From the IMG/VR virus record IMGVR_UViG_2799112923_000001: a stretch of DNA of 64,000 nt; one strand, 5' to 3'. The translations under genes and the position numbers were made by a program. Origin of the DNA: a virus. Its lineage: Duplodnaviria > Heunggongvirae > Uroviricota > Caudoviricetes. The notes beneath the pieces are model-generated. The model was given only the letters and a program-made list of their open reading frames with translations. It was not told where the DNA came from and made no database searches. This document shows positions 1,037-42,714 of the stretch, in pieces (the stretch's first letter is position 1; each line of letters begins with the position of its first letter).

Positions 1037-1259
1037 GCAAGATATGTTTAAGAACTTTATTAAAGATTTGGAAAAGAAATACAATTTATCTTGTGAAGAA
1101 ACTGGACTCGGTGACAGAAATTATTTTTACAATAATGTATTGATGTTCACAATTTATGATGATGGCGAAACTGGTGAAATCGTTGGTTATGACGAACCAA
1201 TATCAAGAACTGACGAATTCATTGAAAATCTAAAAATTGTGTTTTCCAATGTAAAATAA
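990..1259 (+). CDS. hypothetical protein
   Basis: ORF with GAGGT SD 8 nt upstream; overlaps end of previous gene in another frame; alternative start ATG 1044. Confidence 0.35.
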   Translation: MRYTAMKNQLAILQNKQDMFKNFIKDLEKKYNLSCEETGLGDRNYFYNNVLMFTIYDDGETGEIVGYDEPISRTDEFIENLKIVFSNVK

Positions 1260-1288
1260 ATTTTACAAGAAAATAGCACAAAAACCCA

Positions 1289-4480: not shown

Positions 4481-4894
4481 ATGAAAAAAGGTTTTACTTT
4501 AATTGAACTAATGGTAGTTATCGTTATTATGGGCATTTTAGCAGCCGTAGCAGTTCCAAAACTATTTTCATTGAAATGTATGAGTGATTTGGGTAAATGC
4601 GAAGTTAATGACCCGGAAACTTACAATAGAGTATGTTTGGGTGATAGAACTCACTGGTCTTATGAACATGCTAAAGCCTGTGATGACCATTTTAATAAGA
4701 AACATCCAAAGAAGAAAGAAACACCAGTAGTAACTGAAACTAAAGTGGACACAGTTTATATTGTGAAACACGATACAGTTTACATTGGTAATGGAATACA
4801 AACAATGGATGATTGTATTAAACAGTGTAAAGAAAAACATAATGCTGAAAGTTTAATCAAATTCTGTATCAAAGAACAATGTTTAAAGGACTAG
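4481..4894 (+). CDS. prepilin-type (type IV pilin/pseudopilin) N-terminal domain protein with Cys4 C-terminal domain
   Basis: class III signal MKKGFTLIELMVVIVIMGILAAVAVP; C-term DDCIKQCKEK...IKFCIKEQC matching family at 3140. Confidence 0.65.
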   Translation: MKKGFTLIELMVVIVIMGILAAVAVPKLFSLKCMSDLGKCEVNDPETYNRVCLGDRTHWSYEHAKACDDHFNKKHPKKKETPVVTETKVDTVYIVKHDTVYIGNGIQTMDDCIKQCKEKHNAESLIKFCIKEQCLKD

Positions 4895-6304: not shown

Positions 6305-6351
6305 TTGACAAATCGTCAGTAAATAACTATATTAAAAGAAAAGGAAACACT

Positions 6352-6603
6352 ATGAAGAAAATACTATTAACTCTAATTCTTATGATTCTAGTCGGTTGTT
6401 TTGACGGTCCAAATAAGACCCGAAATGGCGACCGTTATTACAACATCAAAATCTGTGCTATTGGTGGTGATGCCGATACTTGTGTAAATTACAAAGCAAA
6501 AGACTTTAATCCTAGTGGAAACGATTTAATGTTTACAACTCTTGATGACCATGTGTACAGATATAATCATGCTGGTTGGGCTTGGGCAATAGAATTACGA
6601 TAA
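6352..6603 (+). CDS. putative lipoprotein
   Basis: AAAGGAAACACTATG; signal MKKILLTLILMILVGC (lipobox). Confidence 0.5.
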   Translation: MKKILLTLILMILVGCFDGPNKTRNGDRYYNIKICAIGGDADTCVNYKAKDFNPSGNDLMFTTLDDHVYRYNHAGWAWAIELR

Positions 6604-10479: not shown

Positions 10480-10944
10480 ATGATAGTAAAAGCAAATGTT
10501 GTTTATAAAGATGGTAAGCGAGGTTCCGAATGGTTCCTGGTACGCTTTGACCATACCCCAGTAAAAGAAGTAACCAAGAAGAAACGCAGAACTGGCTTGT
10601 GTAGTATCTTCTATTTGACAGATGATGAATCCTATAAGGGTGGTGAAGATTTTGCTTCACGAATCTGTGGTGAAAAGAAGAAATTCTTTGTGACTGATGC
10701 GAAAATTGAGTGTTCCGCAAAGGATAATTATGTAAAAGCATTTGCCCGTAATGTAACTATGAAGAAAGCCATTCAAAAGATTATGGAAATGCAGTCCGAA
10801 AATCGTCTAGACTGGGATTTCTCTTTTGATAATGAAACCTTCAAGTCATTCATTACTACATTGAATAAGCAGCACCCACATGGCAACGAAACTGCTATGA
10901 AGCTCATTCAAAATTCTTCTTATCGTGCCAAAAAGAAGAAGTAA
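10480..10944 (+). CDS. hypothetical protein
   Basis: AAAGGAAAACAAAATG; 154 aa. Confidence 0.5.
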   Translation: MIVKANVVYKDGKRGSEWFLVRFDHTPVKEVTKKKRRTGLCSIFYLTDDESYKGGEDFASRICGEKKKFFVTDAKIECSAKDNYVKAFARNVTMKKAIQKIMEMQSENRLDWDFSFDNETFKSFITTLNKQHPHGNETAMKLIQNSSYRAKKKK

Positions 10945-10962
10945 TGTAAACAAAAATTTACA
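10945..10962 (+). promoter_or_regulatory. palindromic operator-like site TGTAAA-N6-TTTACA
   Basis: dyad 20 bp upstream of the -35 of module at 10975; same dyad at 18657, 37249, 59920, 63866. Confidence 0.5.
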
Positions 10963-10974
10963 GACTCCCCCAAA

Positions 10975-11011
10975 AAATCCATTGACAAAGTCAGTGGATT
11001 TTTCTATATTA
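10975..11011 (+). promoter_or_regulatory. composite module: terminator hairpin embedding -35 (TTGACA) + T-tract + -10 TATATT
   Basis: inverted repeat aaaatccattgac/gtcagtggatttt; TTGACA 10983-88, 17-nt spacer, TATATT 11006-11. Confidence 0.6.
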
Positions 11012-14420: not shown

Positions 14421-14832
14421 CTTAATAAAATTCAAAAAAAGAAAGAATGAAGAAGCTCCAATTCCTATGGAATGGGATGTACAAATCGCAGCATTAGCAA
14501 GAGAACTAAATTGCGTTTTTGTTCCTAGAGATAATTTAGACCCATCAACAGGAAAAATTTATTTCTGTAATAAACCTTATGATTTTACCCATTCATTCGC
14601 CTATAATGCTATCAAGAGTTGGTATGTGGTTTGTGGTTGGGTTAGGAAAGATGGCAAATATAATCTGATTGTTAAGAATGTGAATAACATTGTTAAAAAT
14701 AAAAATATGTGTATTGAATACAAGTTTAAGAACTACAATGATTTCAAAAAAGAATATATCAAACATTTAAAGGCTTTTGACACGAATAAGCAAGAATACG
14801 ATTTACACTTAATCAATATGGACTTAAAATGA
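14407..14832 (+). CDS. hypothetical protein
   Basis: ORF, start uncertain. Confidence 0.4.
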   Translation: MIFRNLIKFKKRKNEEAPIPMEWDVQIAALARELNCVFVPRDNLDPSTGKIYFCNKPYDFTHSFAYNAIKSWYVVCGWVRKDGKYNLIVKNVNNIVKNKNMCIEYKFKNYNDFKKEYIKHLKAFDTNKQEYDLHLINMDLK

Positions 14833-15161
14833 CTAATCAAGAACTGTTAAATAAAATAGCTGAAGATTTTCCTGAATTAGATACCCATAGGTCTAGTTCA
14901 GGAAATGAGATTTATTTTATTGGAATTTATGGTGAATCATTTGCACTGATTATGGAAGAATGTATTCAGCACTATATTATTAGATGTGAAGGATTACAAA
15001 TAAGAGATGGTTATATTTGTGGTGTAAAAGCATCGTCTTATAAACCAAATGAACCACCTGACTATAATGAATGTAAAGAACATATCAAGAAAGTTTTAGA
15101 AGAATATAAGTTATTGCGAGTTAAAAGACTAGAAAATAAAGCCAACGAAGATTTCAAATGA
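14829..15161 (+). CDS. hypothetical small protein (DF-terminus series)
   Basis: ends NEDFK; junction GAAGATTTCAAATGA. Confidence 0.5.
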   Translation: MTNQELLNKIAEDFPELDTHRSSSGNEIYFIGIYGESFALIMEECIQHYIIRCEGLQIRDGYICGVKASSYKPNEPPDYNECKEHIKKVLEEYKLLRVKRLENKANEDFK

Positions 15162-18053: not shown

Positions 18054-18364
18054 CTGCAAGAGAAATGATTACTATTACAAATGGTGTAAATCGTAAATCC
18101 GATGAAGAAATGATTGCTAGAATTGAAAAACGAATAGAAGAAAATGCTAGTAAAGGTAAAACCTATGTTTCTATTCCACAAGATAGAATGACCAGAACTA
18201 TCTTTGAGCATTTTGAACAAAAGGGGTTTTCATTTAAAGACAGTCATTGTGCTGGAATGACATTTGTTCAAATTTCTTGGGCAGACGCAGAACCATTAAC
18301 AGATTTTGATTTTAAATCCTATTTAATGGAGAGAAAACTAAGGAGCATTGAACATGACTTTTGA
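18050..18364 (+). CDS. hypothetical small protein
   Basis: ends IEHDF. Confidence 0.5.
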   Translation: MTAREMITITNGVNRKSDEEMIARIEKRIEENASKGKTYVSIPQDRMTRTIFEHFEQKGFSFKDSHCAGMTFVQISWADAEPLTDFDFKSYLMERKLRSIEHDF

Positions 18365-18653
18365 TTTCAATAACATTCCATTAAATGATAAAAGGACTAT
18401 TAAAAACTTCTGCCGGCTATGTGTAGAACAGTCTGTGAATTTGGAAAATACGAAGAAAAATGGTTATTACAAAATGAGAGCCATTTTTACACCAAGTCCA
18501 TATCTTACTATGTTTTTTAATAAATTCCAAATAGCAATAGGTAAAGAAGATTATACATTGGTTTGGCCTGAAGAATCTATGCCAAAACTGTTAAAATTGG
18601 GCAAAGAAGTCCAAATGTACGAAAAATTACAGGAAATCAAGAAAGATTTCTAG
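18348..18653 (+). CDS. hypothetical small protein
   Basis: ends IKKDF. Confidence 0.5.
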   Translation: MNMTFDFNNIPLNDKRTIKNFCRLCVEQSVNLENTKKNGYYKMRAIFTPSPYLTMFFNKFQIAIGKEDYTLVWPEESMPKLLKLGKEVQMYEKLQEIKKDF

Positions 18654-18656
18654 TTT

Positions 18657-18674
18657 TGTAAACAAAATTTTACA
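18657..18674 (+). promoter_or_regulatory. palindromic operator-like site TGTAAA-N6-TTTACA
   Basis: 19 bp upstream of -35 of module 18689. Confidence 0.5.
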
Positions 18675-18688
18675 TATTTTTACAAGAA

Positions 18689-18722
18689 TGCAGTTGACAA
18701 CAACTGCATTTTTTACTATATT
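18689..18722 (+). promoter_or_regulatory. composite terminator-hairpin/promoter module
   Basis: gcagttgacaacaactgc hairpin, T-run, TTGACA 18694-99, N17, TATATT 18717-22. Confidence 0.6.
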
Positions 18723-18752
18723 TACAATGTAAAAAGAAAAAGAGGTAACATT

Positions 18753-40823: not shown

Positions 40824-42629
40824 ATGAAGAAGTTATTTCTCATTTTAATGGTGGCAATTAGTGCCGCTTTTGGTGGTCCTGGATTGGCAGATGGTGCTGC
40901 GAAATTCGTGGGTAACATTACTACCCAAGGACAAGTTCGTAGTGATTTCACCAGTCTATGGAATCAAATTACAGCAGAAAACGAATGTAAATGGGCATCT
41001 ATTGAAGGAACCCAGGGTCGCTATAACTGGAGTGGTTGTGATGCGGCTTATAATTGGGCAAAGAACAATGGAGGTCATTTCAAGTTCCACGCACTCGTTT
41101 GGGGTTCTCAATATCCTAACTGGTTGAATGGTAAATCTGCCGAAGATACAAAGAAAGCAATTACTAATTGGATGGATGCTGTAAAGAATCATTATCCTGA
41201 TTTGGAAATGATTGACGTGGTAAACGAAGCAATTAAGTCAGGTGGCAAATACCACTCCAATTATGGCTCACAAGGCAATAACAACATTATTGCTGCGTTG
41301 GGTGGTGATAACGGAAACTATGAGTTCGTAGTTACCGCATTTAAGATGGCGAGAGAAAGATGGCCCGATGCTATCTTGATTTACAATGATTATAATACTG
41401 TTCAATGGCAAAAGAATGAAGGTATTGACCTTATTCAAAAGTTGAAAAAACAGGGTGCCCCAGTAGATGCTTATGGTCTCCAGGCCCACGATATGCAGAA
41501 AGCAGGTGGTGGTAATGGTGGTACAGGTGGTGGCGGTTCTTGTTTAGACATTAACCAACTAAAATCTACCATTGAAGAAATTTGGACTAAAACCCAAATG
41601 CCTATGTTCATTAGTGAATATGATATTGCTACCGAAGATGACAATGACCAGAAGAATTGTTACCAACAACAGATTTCTTACTTTATGGAAAATGAACATA
41701 TTGCTGGTATTACTCTTTGGGGTTATATCTATGGTGCTACTTGGACTACAAATGGTAACTCCGGTATCATTAAGAACGGACAAGATAGACCTGCTATGAC
41801 CTGGTTGAAATCTTATTTGAAATCCAATAAGGGTGTAAACTCTACTGGTTTGCCAACTGGTGATGGTGTAACGATTGTTGAACCAGAACCACAAAAACCA
41901 TTTAAGGGTGAAGCATTTAATATAGCATTACCTATTGAAGCAGAAGATTTTGATATTCCAGGTAAGGGAGCAGGCAATAATTCCTATTCAGTTAGTGGTG
42001 ATTGTAATGACACATGGAATACTGAATATCGTAAGGGAACAACTGTAAAGATTGGTGAAAAGAATGGTGGTCTAGTTTTGGGTTGTAATCCAACTGGGAA
42101 CTATTTCCAATACACCATTAAGGTTCCTGAAGCAGGTAATTACTATGTTTACGCAACAGTAGCAGCCGAAGGAGAAGGTGCTATCTTATTCAAGATTGGA
42201 GATAAAGCAATTACAGATACATTGAAATATACCGGTGATTCCTGGACTAAATTTGATAAAATTAAGGGTCAAGCAAAATTTGATGCTACTGGTGAACAAA
42301 TTTTAACATTAGAGATTGCTAAGGGTTATATTGACATAGATAAATTTGAATTTATGGTTACAGATTGTGCACCTGGTGATGCTCGTTGTGGCGGACCTTC
42401 CTATAATTGTGAAGCCTATCCTGATGACCCAATGTGTAGAACTGTGTTAATCAATGGCAACCCCGATATGCCAAAACTCCAGCACTTCACAGTATTTGAC
42501 GTACGAGGCGTTTTCTTGGGTGTGGTTAGTGGTTATACCCCTGACCTAGCCGCTGGCTTCCTTAGATTGCCTCCTGGTCAGTACTTGCTTAAAGATAGTC
42601 GCGGTTCAATATACAAAATTAAAAAATAA
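40824..42629 (+). CDS. secreted GH10 family xylanase with CBM6/35-like module and T9SS-type C-terminal sorting-domain-like tail
   Basis: signal peptide; GH10 blocks NECKWASIEG, HALVWGSQYPNW, IDVVNEA, ISEYDI; beta-sandwich CBM region (EAEDFDIPG...NYYVYATVAAEG...YIDIDKFEF); Cys-rich linker; C-term FTVFDVRGVFLG...LRLPPGQYLLK..SIYKIKK. Confidence 0.8.
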   Translation: MKKLFLILMVAISAAFGGPGLADGAAKFVGNITTQGQVRSDFTSLWNQITAENECKWASIEGTQGRYNWSGCDAAYNWAKNNGGHFKFHALVWGSQYPNWLNGKSAEDTKKAITNWMDAVKNHYPDLEMIDVVNEAIKSGGKYHSNYGSQGNNNIIAALGGDNGNYEFVVTAFKMARERWPDAILIYNDYNTVQWQKNEGIDLIQKLKKQGAPVDAYGLQAHDMQKAGGGNGGTGGGGSCLDINQLKSTIEEIWTKTQMPMFISEYDIATEDDNDQKNCYQQQISYFMENEHIAGITLWGYIYGATWTTNGNSGIIKNGQDRPAMTWLKSYLKSNKGVNSTGLPTGDGVTIVEPEPQKPFKGEAFNIALPIEAEDFDIPGKGAGNNSYSVSGDCNDTWNTEYRKGTTVKIGEKNGGLVLGCNPTGNYFQYTIKVPEAGNYYVYATVAAEGEGAILFKIGDKAITDTLKYTGDSWTKFDKIKGQAKFDATGEQILTLEIAKGYIDIDKFEFMVTDCAPGDARCGGPSYNCEAYPDDPMCRTVLINGNPDMPKLQHFTVFDVRGVFLGVVSGYTPDLAAGFLRLPPGQYLLKDSRGSIYKIKK

Positions 42630-42714
42630 GAATATATTGAATTGTAAATAAACTTTTACTATATTGAGTGGTGAATAGTTGCTATTCACCATTTTTTTAT
42701 TATGAAGGAATGAA

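Follow-up and report, generated by a model that had tools for sequence, protein, structure and literature searches.

The 64,000-nucleotide viral DNA of IMG/VR record IMGVR_UViG_2799112923_000001, referred to here at its full length as the window, carries the inverted repeat TGTAAA-N6-TTTACA (the dyad) at positions 10945-10962, between the end of one gene and a promoter of consensus sequence. This locus raises the question of what the dyad does there and what kind of molecule would read it. Our analysis indicates that the dyad is probably a protein operator, helix-phased to early promoters of the promoter-early stem-loop (PeSL) type, through which one dimeric factor would act on RNA polymerase at many cassettes.

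Occurrence of the dyad in the window

A scan of the whole window identified seven exact copies of TGTAAA-N6-TTTACA, starting at 1250, 10945, 18657, 37249, 59864, 59920 and 63866. The original prediction had listed five of these; the scan recovered all five (10945, 18657, 37249, 59920 and 63866) and added the sites at 1250 and 59864, which had been overlooked. Extra TTTACA half-sites reported at 59942 and 63888 were also found, as was a third at 18679 that had escaped notice. With 92 TGTAAA and 53 TTTACA half-sites in the window, 0.076 dyads would be expected per spacing, and the Poisson probability of at least seven was 2.7e-12; 100 dinucleotide-preserving shuffles yielded 0.00 dyads. Enrichment was confined to the 6-nt spacer (7 sites). 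Other spacings between 0 and 40 nt occurred 0-1 times, except for 16 nt (3 sites), and all three of those sites arose from an extra TTTACA located 4 nt past a dyad. Everted and direct arrangements of the half-sites were at background, except for TTTACA-N4-TTTACA (3).

Although just 7.3% of the window is intergenic and 92.7% is coding, five of the seven dyads lay wholly between genes (binomial p = 3.8e-5). The intergenic copies typically followed an upstream stop codon directly, and the site at 1250 overlapped the final codons of a doubtful open reading frame (ORF).

Dyads form part of terminator-promoter cassettes

Five dyads preceded consensus sigma70-type promoters with 11-12 of 12 matches and a 17-bp spacer (TTGACA-N17-TATATT or TATAAT at 1289, 10982, 18694, 59957 and 63903). 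All of the strong promoter matches were on the + strand and none was on the - strand. The distance from the start of the dyad to the start of the -35 was 37 bp in four modules and 39 bp at 1250, leaving gaps of 19 and 21 bp, respectively, between the end of the dyad and the -35. The gap of 19-20 bp previously given for four modules was therefore 19 bp in all four, while the position assigned to the site, around -55/-60, had to be corrected to -72 to -55, with the centre at about -63.5.

Hairpins of -10 to -19 kcal/mol, followed by a T-run, enclosed the -35 elements at 10982, 18694, 38343, 50097, 59957 and 63903, such that termination of the upstream transcript and the next start share the same few dozen bases. 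No hairpin was found at promoter 1289, making it the sole dyad cassette without one. Each cassette extended from the stop codon of the preceding gene to an AAGAGGT-type Shine-Dalgarno (SD) sequence and an ATG. As the cassettes at 6305, 9559, 38343 and 50097 did not contain the dyad, it is an optional module. The features of the dyad loci were as follows (no strand is assigned to a dyad).

1250..1267: exact dyad, TGTAAAATAAATTTTACA, 39 bp ahead of the -35 of promoter 1289-1317 (TTGACA-N17-TATAAT, 12/12)
1324-1764: HNH-endonuclease-like ORF (HHILCRSMGG...NRVLMTPKEHYIAH), directly downstream of dyad promoter 1289
10945..10962: exact dyad, directly past the stop of ORF 10480-10944 and 37 bp ahead of the -35
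10973..11010, + strand: terminator-promoter cassette; hairpin 10973-11003 with the -35 (10982-10987) in its stem, T-run, -10 TATATT at 11005-11010
18657..18674: exact dyad, 3 nt past the stop of ORF 18354-18653 and 37 bp ahead of the -35
18679..18684, + strand: extra TTTACA, 4 nt past the dyad and 15 bp ahead of the -35
18684..18722, + strand: terminator hairpin and promoter; hairpin 18684-18713 encloses the -35 (18694-18699), -10 TATATT at 18717-18722
18728..18733, + strand: TGTAAA half-site, 5 nt past the -10, approximately at the transcription start
37249..37266: exact dyad upstream of gp32 (SSB), at about -60.5 relative to an extended -10 promoter
42643..42660: one-mismatch dyad, TGTAAATAAACTTTTACT, past the GH10 gene and immediately 5' of terminator hairpin 42668-42700; no canonical -35
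59864..59881: exact dyad in the 3' portion of ORF 59580-59918, with the 59920 dyad 56 bp further downstream
59920..59937: exact dyad, 1 nt past the stop of ORF 59580-59918 and 37 bp ahead of the -35
59942..59985, + strand: half-site, hairpin and promoter; TTTACA 59942-59947, hairpin 59947-59977, -35 at 59957-59962, -10 TATATT at 59980-59985
63866..63883: exact dyad, 1 nt past the stop of ORF 63397-63864 and 37 bp ahead of the -35
63888..63942, + strand: half-site, hairpin and promoter; TTTACA 63888-63893, hairpin 63893-63921, -35 at 63903-63908, -10 TATATT at 63926-63931, TGTAAA at +1 (63937-63942)

The dyad at 59864 may be a second operator or a relic. Use of the extra TTTACA boxes as alternative -35 elements was considered and rejected, since no -10 lies 16-18 bp downstream of them.

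Position and distribution of the dyad in related phages

The window has a G+C content of 33% and every gene is on the + strand. It encodes a T4-type gene set that includes a family-B DNA polymerase (PolB) with a T4-type exonuclease domain, a gp32-like SSB, UvsX, a gp41/DnaB-type helicase and a T4-type RNA ligase, and PHROGs also recognized a gp45-like clamp. Among 50,697 phage records, a megablast search with 10 kb of the window detected nothing closely related at the DNA level, and in tblastn comparisons with cultured T4-like phages the PolB was only ~30% identical to those of cyanophage and coliphage T4-likes. On these grounds we assign the window to a deep-branching, uncultivated and very distant T4-type phage. 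All of the related contigs, including those binned into metagenome-assembled genomes (MAGs), originated from ruminant gut samples.

Related viral contigs were collected in two scans. The first used the dyad with the extra half-site, and most of its matches belonged to a single unrelated coding family (sample 3300045988) that we set aside; it also identified 12 loci with the full TGTAAA-N6-TTTACA-N4-TTTACA-N9-TTGACA-N17-TATATT arrangement in differing gene contexts. About 22 distinct dyad sites were catalogued, 16 of which started exactly 37 bp ahead of the -35. The second scan was anchored on TTTACA-N9-TTGACA-N17-TATATT only, and pooling its results with the earlier loci gave 197 distinct strong TTGACA-N17-TATAWT promoters from the window and related contigs. 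Among these promoters an exact dyad started 37 bp (24), 38 bp (3) or 27 bp (10) ahead of the -35, with single cases at 36, 39, 48 and 93 bp. The registers at 27, 37-38 and 48 bp are thus one helical turn apart (periodicity ~10.5 bp), and this pattern is not an artefact of the search because the anchor TTTACA is missing from 13 of the 24 modules in the 37-bp register. Taking the -10 as -12 to -7, the dyad is centred at -63.5 in the 37-bp register and at -53.5 in the 27-bp register; the extra TTTACA at 18679 sits where the right half-site would be in the latter. A TGTAAA half-site 5-6 nt past the -10, i.e. at about +1, was present in 16 of 31 dyad modules compared to 0 of 16 dyad-less modules of the clade (p = 2e-4). 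This element may serve the dyad-binding factor as a second contact, or may be favoured as the initial transcribed sequence.

The dyad occurred in relatives with at least 63% PolB identity, and was absent from relatives of the same habitats with 49% PolB identity and from larger GH10-bearing phages. In 100 kb of RB49 there were neither exact nor one-mismatch dyads, and its 15 PeSL promoters lacked such a palindrome. Comparison of the window with a 97%-identical, 132-kb relative (L108) showed the two to be collinear save for four indels or replacements (11012 vs L108:4172; 11432; 14444-15134; 19257-19378). One of these four, a small sample, begins exactly at the -10 of module 10945 and adds a 53-aa ORF, and a 73% relative (L109) carries a dyad cassette at a place where the window lacks one. 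By comparison of these genomes, both differences would fit PeSL-type gene shuffling. Another lineage (L151:311 and L197:5443; IMGVR_UViG_3300021431_000077 and a relative) contains direct repeats at the dyad positions, TTTACA-N6-TTTAGA-N4-TTTACA-N9-TTGACA, which hints that -35-like hexamers at -60 and -50 may be an older feature from which the dyad evolved.

Conservation of sequence rather than pairing

Across 15 distinct 37-bp modules the conservation of both arms of the dyad equalled that of the -35 and -10, and the spacer (cAaAAt) and flanks showed no more than an AT bias. Six orthologous module pairs, with downstream proteins 40-94% identical, had 72 of 72 arm positions and 72 of 72 core hexamer positions identical, compared to 179 of 231 at other positions. 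The most diverged pair, 18657 of the window and its counterpart in L080 (40% protein identity), retained the dyad in its 37-bp register together with the extra half-site, and its terminator stem was rebuilt from different bases. A search for relatives of ORF 60886-61605 found none, and hence sites 59920 and 63866 did not permit an orthologous comparison.

Thirteen one-mismatch variants at two registers differed at position 1 (8), 4 (2), 6 (2) or 13 (1). G2 and C17, which are 14 bp apart, were invariant among them, and the partner base never compensated for a mismatch. As RNA the dyad would form a weak hairpin of -2.4 to -5.9 kcal/mol, and nothing in the window reached the Rfam threshold. Strict arms, invariant G2 and C17, uncompensated mismatches and a weak stem together argue that a symmetric protein reads the duplex base-specifically. 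They also argue against a hairpin, an UP element or the mere inheritance of a repeated cassette.

The gp32 promoter

The dyad upstream of gp32 requires separate consideration. It had been described as abutting the -35 of the SSB promoter. A TTGACA (37273-37278) is indeed only 6 bp from the dyad; however, it is 27 bp from the TATAAT and is therefore not a properly spaced -35. The promoter is instead of the extended -10 type, TGTTATAAT at 37303-37311. The gp32 dyad was restricted to relatives with 99-100% gp32 identity, and membership of SSB in a dyad regulon could not be upheld given its presence in near-identical relatives only. We also observed that a block, ATAGTTTTTTAnATTTGTGnTAnAnTAAATGGTGAACA, and an upstream hairpin ahead of gp32 are kept at 84-90% identity (window 37200-37345; L083-L095). 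This block and hairpin may be the real gp32 promoter or a translational operator.

Downstream genes, host and candidate binding proteins

The genes behind dyad promoters belonged to about 25 unrelated families out of 31, and hence define neither a functional regulon nor an autoregulated gene. The regulon originally envisaged gives way to a general-purpose promoter cassette of the PeSL type. These genes are ORFan families with no link to the uptake or synthesis of aromatic amino acids. An 84-aa AroQ-type chorismate mutase is encoded at 55045-55299 (Pfam CM_2, 4e-16), and is not behind a dyad. It is an unusual auxiliary gene for a phage that becomes relevant if an aromatic amino-acid sensor such as TyrR reads the dyad. 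Its best NCBIfam model was TIGR01805 (Gram-positive monofunctional), below cutoff.

The closest PolB relatives were binned in Bacillota or Clostridia MAGs, and the relatives at 49% identity were binned as Methanobrevibacter, Bacilli, Succinivibrionaceae (one) and Coprovivens; as these labels contradict each other, binning is an unreliable guide to the host. Codon usage was mixed and pointed to no one host, and a search of the literature on rumen T4-like jumbo phages added nothing usable on this point. The small protein encoded by ORF 19094, proposed earlier as the binder, matched no family, and the 3' half of its gene is replaced in the 97%-identical relative; we consider it a poor candidate. 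No gene family was found to recur behind dyad promoters.

Other features of the window

Coding regions strongly avoid NCG codons and CTG (TCG 3%, CCG 6%, ACG 4%, GCG 6% and CGG 2% of their families), a pattern that points to CpG depletion. The window contains no tRNA genes. Three N6/N4 DNA methyltransferase genes, ThyX and a dCMP deaminase are also present. Among the early genes are one for a prepilin-type protein, MKKGFTLIELMVV... (TIGR02532, 1e-9), for which NCBIfam typing gave a generic assignment without a host hint, and two for small proteins with lipoprotein-like signal peptides.

4481-4894, 21-311, 6352-6603: prepilin-type protein and two proteins with lipoprotein-like signals (sequence / TIGR02532)
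15161, 16570, 18653, 20924, 59918, 62226, 63382: examples of gene ends with a DF tail (described below); also in L047, L079, L094 and L110

The GH10 xylanase gene (40824-42629) has 70-99% identity across a large family of ruminant-gut phages (L111-L114), some with CBM_6, and its relatives include phage contigs of 157-415 kb bearing T4-type clamp-loader genes. We had considered this gene as a recent acquisition from the host, and thus a clue to its identity, and rejected this interpretation since it is a clade-wide phage gene.

The proteins of the window share an unusual C-terminus, with 46 of 114-118 predicted proteins terminating in ...[LI]xx[IV]xxDF plus 0-2 residues. Carriers of this tail include tandem ORFans of ~100 aa, the PolB (..GLDDFFV) and the CCA-adding enzyme. 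The tail is clade-specific, occurring in 10/15 proteins of L047, 9/17 of L079 and 8/23 of L094 versus 1/156 of RB49, and in roughly 0-10% of proteins of the 49% relatives and the GH10-bearing jumbo relatives (3/31 in L101). The GAT of the DF codons is 8 nt ahead of the next ATG in both ATGA and TAATG overlaps, which suggests that the tail is a stereotyped SD sequence and spacer embedded in the 3' end of the gene. DF tails also occur without a coupled next gene, e.g. ahead of dyad cassettes, and may alternatively be clamp-binding tails or recombination junctions.

Proposed mechanism and alternatives

Given the site, its strict geometry, the selection on its sequence and its spread through the clade, we infer protein binding, contact with RNA polymerase and the sign of the effect. 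A symmetric dimeric protein would read the dyad base-specifically as duplex DNA, on one helix face upstream of early promoters used by host RNA polymerase (sigma70/sigmaA-type). Bound at -63.5 or -53.5, it would contact RNA polymerase, most simply the alpha C-terminal domain in class I style, and thereby tune or time transcription of all dyad cassettes together. The prediction of a dimeric-factor site upstream of promoters has gained from the strict N6 spacing, the helix-phased registers, conservation at the level of sequence rather than pairing, and retention across diverged phages. The accompanying suggestion of an activator-like role fares less well, as activation is not the only plausible outcome at core promoters that already match the consensus.

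Several observations weigh against this mechanism. The core promoters (TTGACA-N17-TATATT) are already consensus and should therefore need no activator. At 84-90% gp32 identity, unrelated sequence occupies the position of the dyad while the adjacent blocks are kept. Site 59864 lies within ORF 59580-59918, that is, in coding sequence and not tied to a canonical promoter, and the dyads at L096:3499 and window 42643 (one mismatch) directly precede a terminator with no canonical -35. No DNA-binding regulator or helix-turn-helix (HTH) protein was recognizable in the searches of Pfam (~118 proteins), NCBIfam (10) and PHROGs (70). Finally, the relatives were gathered in part with patterns that contain the motif, which inflates absolute counts but did not create the register pattern or the left half-site. 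Consensus cores together with TGTAAA at +1 are more easily reconciled with timed repression or polymerase trapping than with simple recruitment; the dyad may also be an early booster that operates through a pre-existing host factor.

It is very improbable that the dyad is a nucleic-acid hairpin, whether a stem-loop of the 3' untranslated region affecting stability or processing, or a cruciform or homology patch for cassette recombination. Such a role would suit the location of the dyad, always between the upstream stop codon and the terminator and hence transcribed, and the two copies without a canonical -35 that directly precede a terminator. PeSLs have been proposed as recombination sites, and an indel occurs at the -10 of module 10945 relative to the 97% relative. 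However, that junction is at the -10 and not at the dyad, the stem consists of only six A/U-rich pairs, mismatches in it go uncompensated, G2 and C17 are invariant, and the extra half-sites are in direct orientation and cannot pair. Moreover, a constant, helix-phased interval separates the dyad from the -35, in contrast to its variable spacing from the terminator stem. We give an equally low probability to an UP-element-like AT-rich or curved tract touched by the alpha subunit of RNA polymerase only, with no dedicated factor. The AT-rich sequence upstream of PeSLs and T4 early promoters (PMC2839356), the A-tract-rich spacer (cAaAAt) and the 27-bp register, which puts the dyad at -62 to -45 in the UP zone, are all compatible with this explanation, but the arms are exact hexamers with an invariant G and C rather than degenerate A/T, the main register (-72 to -55) is beyond the UP zone, and many modules of the clade as well as all RB49 PeSLs have no dyad.

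If a protein reads the dyad, a pre-existing host regulator is the candidate to which we give most weight, at a little short of an even chance, with TyrR-box specificity as the best lead and the cre-var of CcpA as the second; a phage-encoded switch resembling phi29 p4 is somewhat less probable, and a binder of some other kind is unlikely. T4-type phages typically infect Gram-negative bacteria, which counts for TyrR, or a regulator of its type, in a gamma-proteobacterial host. Bound to perfect strong boxes and activating in class I fashion via the alpha C-terminal domain, it would couple early transcription to the aromatic amino-acid status of the host. The dyad matches its consensus letter for letter, with the strict N6 and the invariant G and C 14 bp apart, the phage encodes an enzyme of the TyrR-sensed pathway, and the published activating distances of 33 and 42 bp compare with 31, 33 and 21 bp in the phage (PMC4374768). 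We nevertheless regard TyrR itself as unlikely: these distances are 1-2 bp off the published cases, the downstream genes are unrelated to aromatic amino acids, the chorismate mutase scores best with a Gram-positive monofunctional model, the closest PolB relatives are in Bacillota or Clostridia bins with just one 49% relative in a Succinivibrionaceae bin, and RB49, which carries PeSLs and whose host E. coli possesses TyrR, shows no box in 100 kb. A weakly Firmicute leaning of the MAG bins and of the chorismate mutase type would favour CcpA, which could bind the dyad as a cre-var in a Firmicute host and link early transcription to carbon status. The arms are identical, a variant with a 6-nt spacer is functional and upstream sol sites are positive (PMC5263246), but the phage uses N6 only versus 0-40 nt, the central CG of the canonical cre is missing, the motif itself is weakly founded and the host evidence is poor, making CcpA improbable. 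Somewhat better placed, though still doubtful, is an early phage protein acting as a temporal switch like phi29 p4 (PMC3100819), which would shut strong early promoters and help those without a -35 such as gp32. Repression of consensus cores is more plausible than their activation, a dyad lies at about -60.5 of the gp32 promoter, which lacks a properly spaced -35, the TGTAAA at +1 suggests a second contact over the start site, and the dyad is confined to one subclade and absent from the 49% PolB relatives of the same habitats. Against such a switch, the window has no HTH or regulator match and no conserved family behind dyad promoters, a site with its centre at -63.5 leaves the promoter unobstructed, and p4 sites are unrelated in sequence.

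PeSLs have been regarded as constitutive strong early promoters fused to terminators that also serve as recombination handles. With an added operator, a single protein would control or time a large and fast-evolving set of ORFans. The identity of the binder would reveal either a lytic T4-type phage that reads host physiology (TyrR-like or CcpA-like) or a new early switch of the p4 kind, and a metabolite sensor of the host as reader would make the element considerably more interesting. It is conceivable, although rather improbable, that the clade wired dozens of early cassettes to a host metabolite sensor of the TyrR-box type through perfect strong boxes at class I positions, hijacking a host activator, with its own chorismate mutase raising the aromatic signal, such that nutrition gates the early programme. 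The dyad is also a sharp, searchable marker of this phage clade and its early promoters in rumen metagenomes and metatranscriptomes.

Comparison with known systems

The consensus site of CRP is TGTGA-N6-TCACA (TGT-N10-ACA), with the lac class I site at -61.5, and that of FNR is TTGAT-N4-ATCAA. The dyad resembles a CRP site as a palindrome with TGT...ACA ends that is centred near -60 on one helix face. However, the arms of a CRP site are 2 bp closer (TGT-N10-ACA versus TGT-N12-ACA) and the half-site letters differ; as the phage spacing is strict, host CRP or FNR, proposed originally as candidate binders, do not fit. Other sites were rejected on geometry, i.e. those of TnrA/GlnR (TGTNA-N7-TNACA, 17 bp), WalR (direct TGTWAH-N5-TGTWAH), B. 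subtilis PhoP (direct TT[ATC]ACA repeats at 11 bp), Rex, Fis (15 bp, G...C) and the LacI-type cre with a central CG.

In phi29, dimers of p4 bind CTTTTT-N15-AAAATG inverted repeats, activate a promoter with a poor -35 and repress early promoters, the outcome being set by how good the core promoter is (PMC3100819). Both systems have inverted repeats beside phage promoters used by host polymerase, with A-tracts between the arms, but the sites resemble each other neither in sequence nor in the spacing of their arms, the -35 of early promoters is overlapped by p4 sites, and no p4-like gene was identified in the window. The cre-var of Clostridium acetobutylicum, a solventogenic clostridium, was described as TGTAAA-Yx-TTTACA with x = 0-40 at 103 sites; a version with a 6-nt spacer was bound and regulated like the wild-type 15-nt site, and the upstream sol cre-var was positive (PMC5263246). 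The phage sites have the same two 6-bp arms, an AT-rich spacer and an upstream location like that of sites with a positive promoter effect, whereas the spacer is variable in cre-var and strictly 6 nt in the phage. By our own arithmetic ~97 chance sites would be expected in a 4.1-Mb genome with 31% GC compared to the 103 reported, and the cre-var motif is therefore weakly founded.

Strong TyrR boxes have at least 10 of 12 matches to TGTAAA-N6-TTTACA with an invariant G and C 14 bp apart, and TyrR activates in class I fashion via the alpha subunit from boxes centred 33 bp (ipdC) or 42 bp (mtr) from the centre of the -35 (PMC4374768). The 18-bp consensus of this gamma-proteobacterial regulator, which the phage host may lack, is identical to the dyad. 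All seven sites of the window are 12/12 matches, with dozens more in relatives, and those tied to promoters are located upstream on the helix face of the -35 at ~3 turns, with a second register one turn away. Centre-to-centre distances from the dyad to the -35 are 31 bp in the main register, 33 bp at 1250 and 21 bp in the second register, helix-phased and 1-2 bp off the published TyrR cases. The phage sites differ in fronting unrelated ORFans rather than aromatic genes, in being perfect boxes throughout, and in having no adjacent weak box overlapping the promoter.

PeSL cassettes are known from RB49/phi1, PST/T4 and nt-1/KVP40 (Arbiol 2010, PMC2839356; Comeau 2014, PMC4122927), and have a stem-loop between or over the -35 and -10 with an AT-rich region upstream (PMC2839356, PMC4122927). 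The cassettes described here share with them the order of stop codon, AT-rich stretch, near-consensus sigma70 promoter, stem-loop terminator, SD and ATG in a T4-type genome and their placement ahead of many small ORFans; one of the four indels that separate two close relatives also falls at a cassette. In contrast, no specific palindromic operator is mentioned for the AT-rich region of PeSLs and RB49 lacks one, while the clade of the window has a conserved, helix-phased dyad at this position. We therefore regard the dyad, judged by its sequence and distribution, as a new clade-specific operator added to a known type of cassette.

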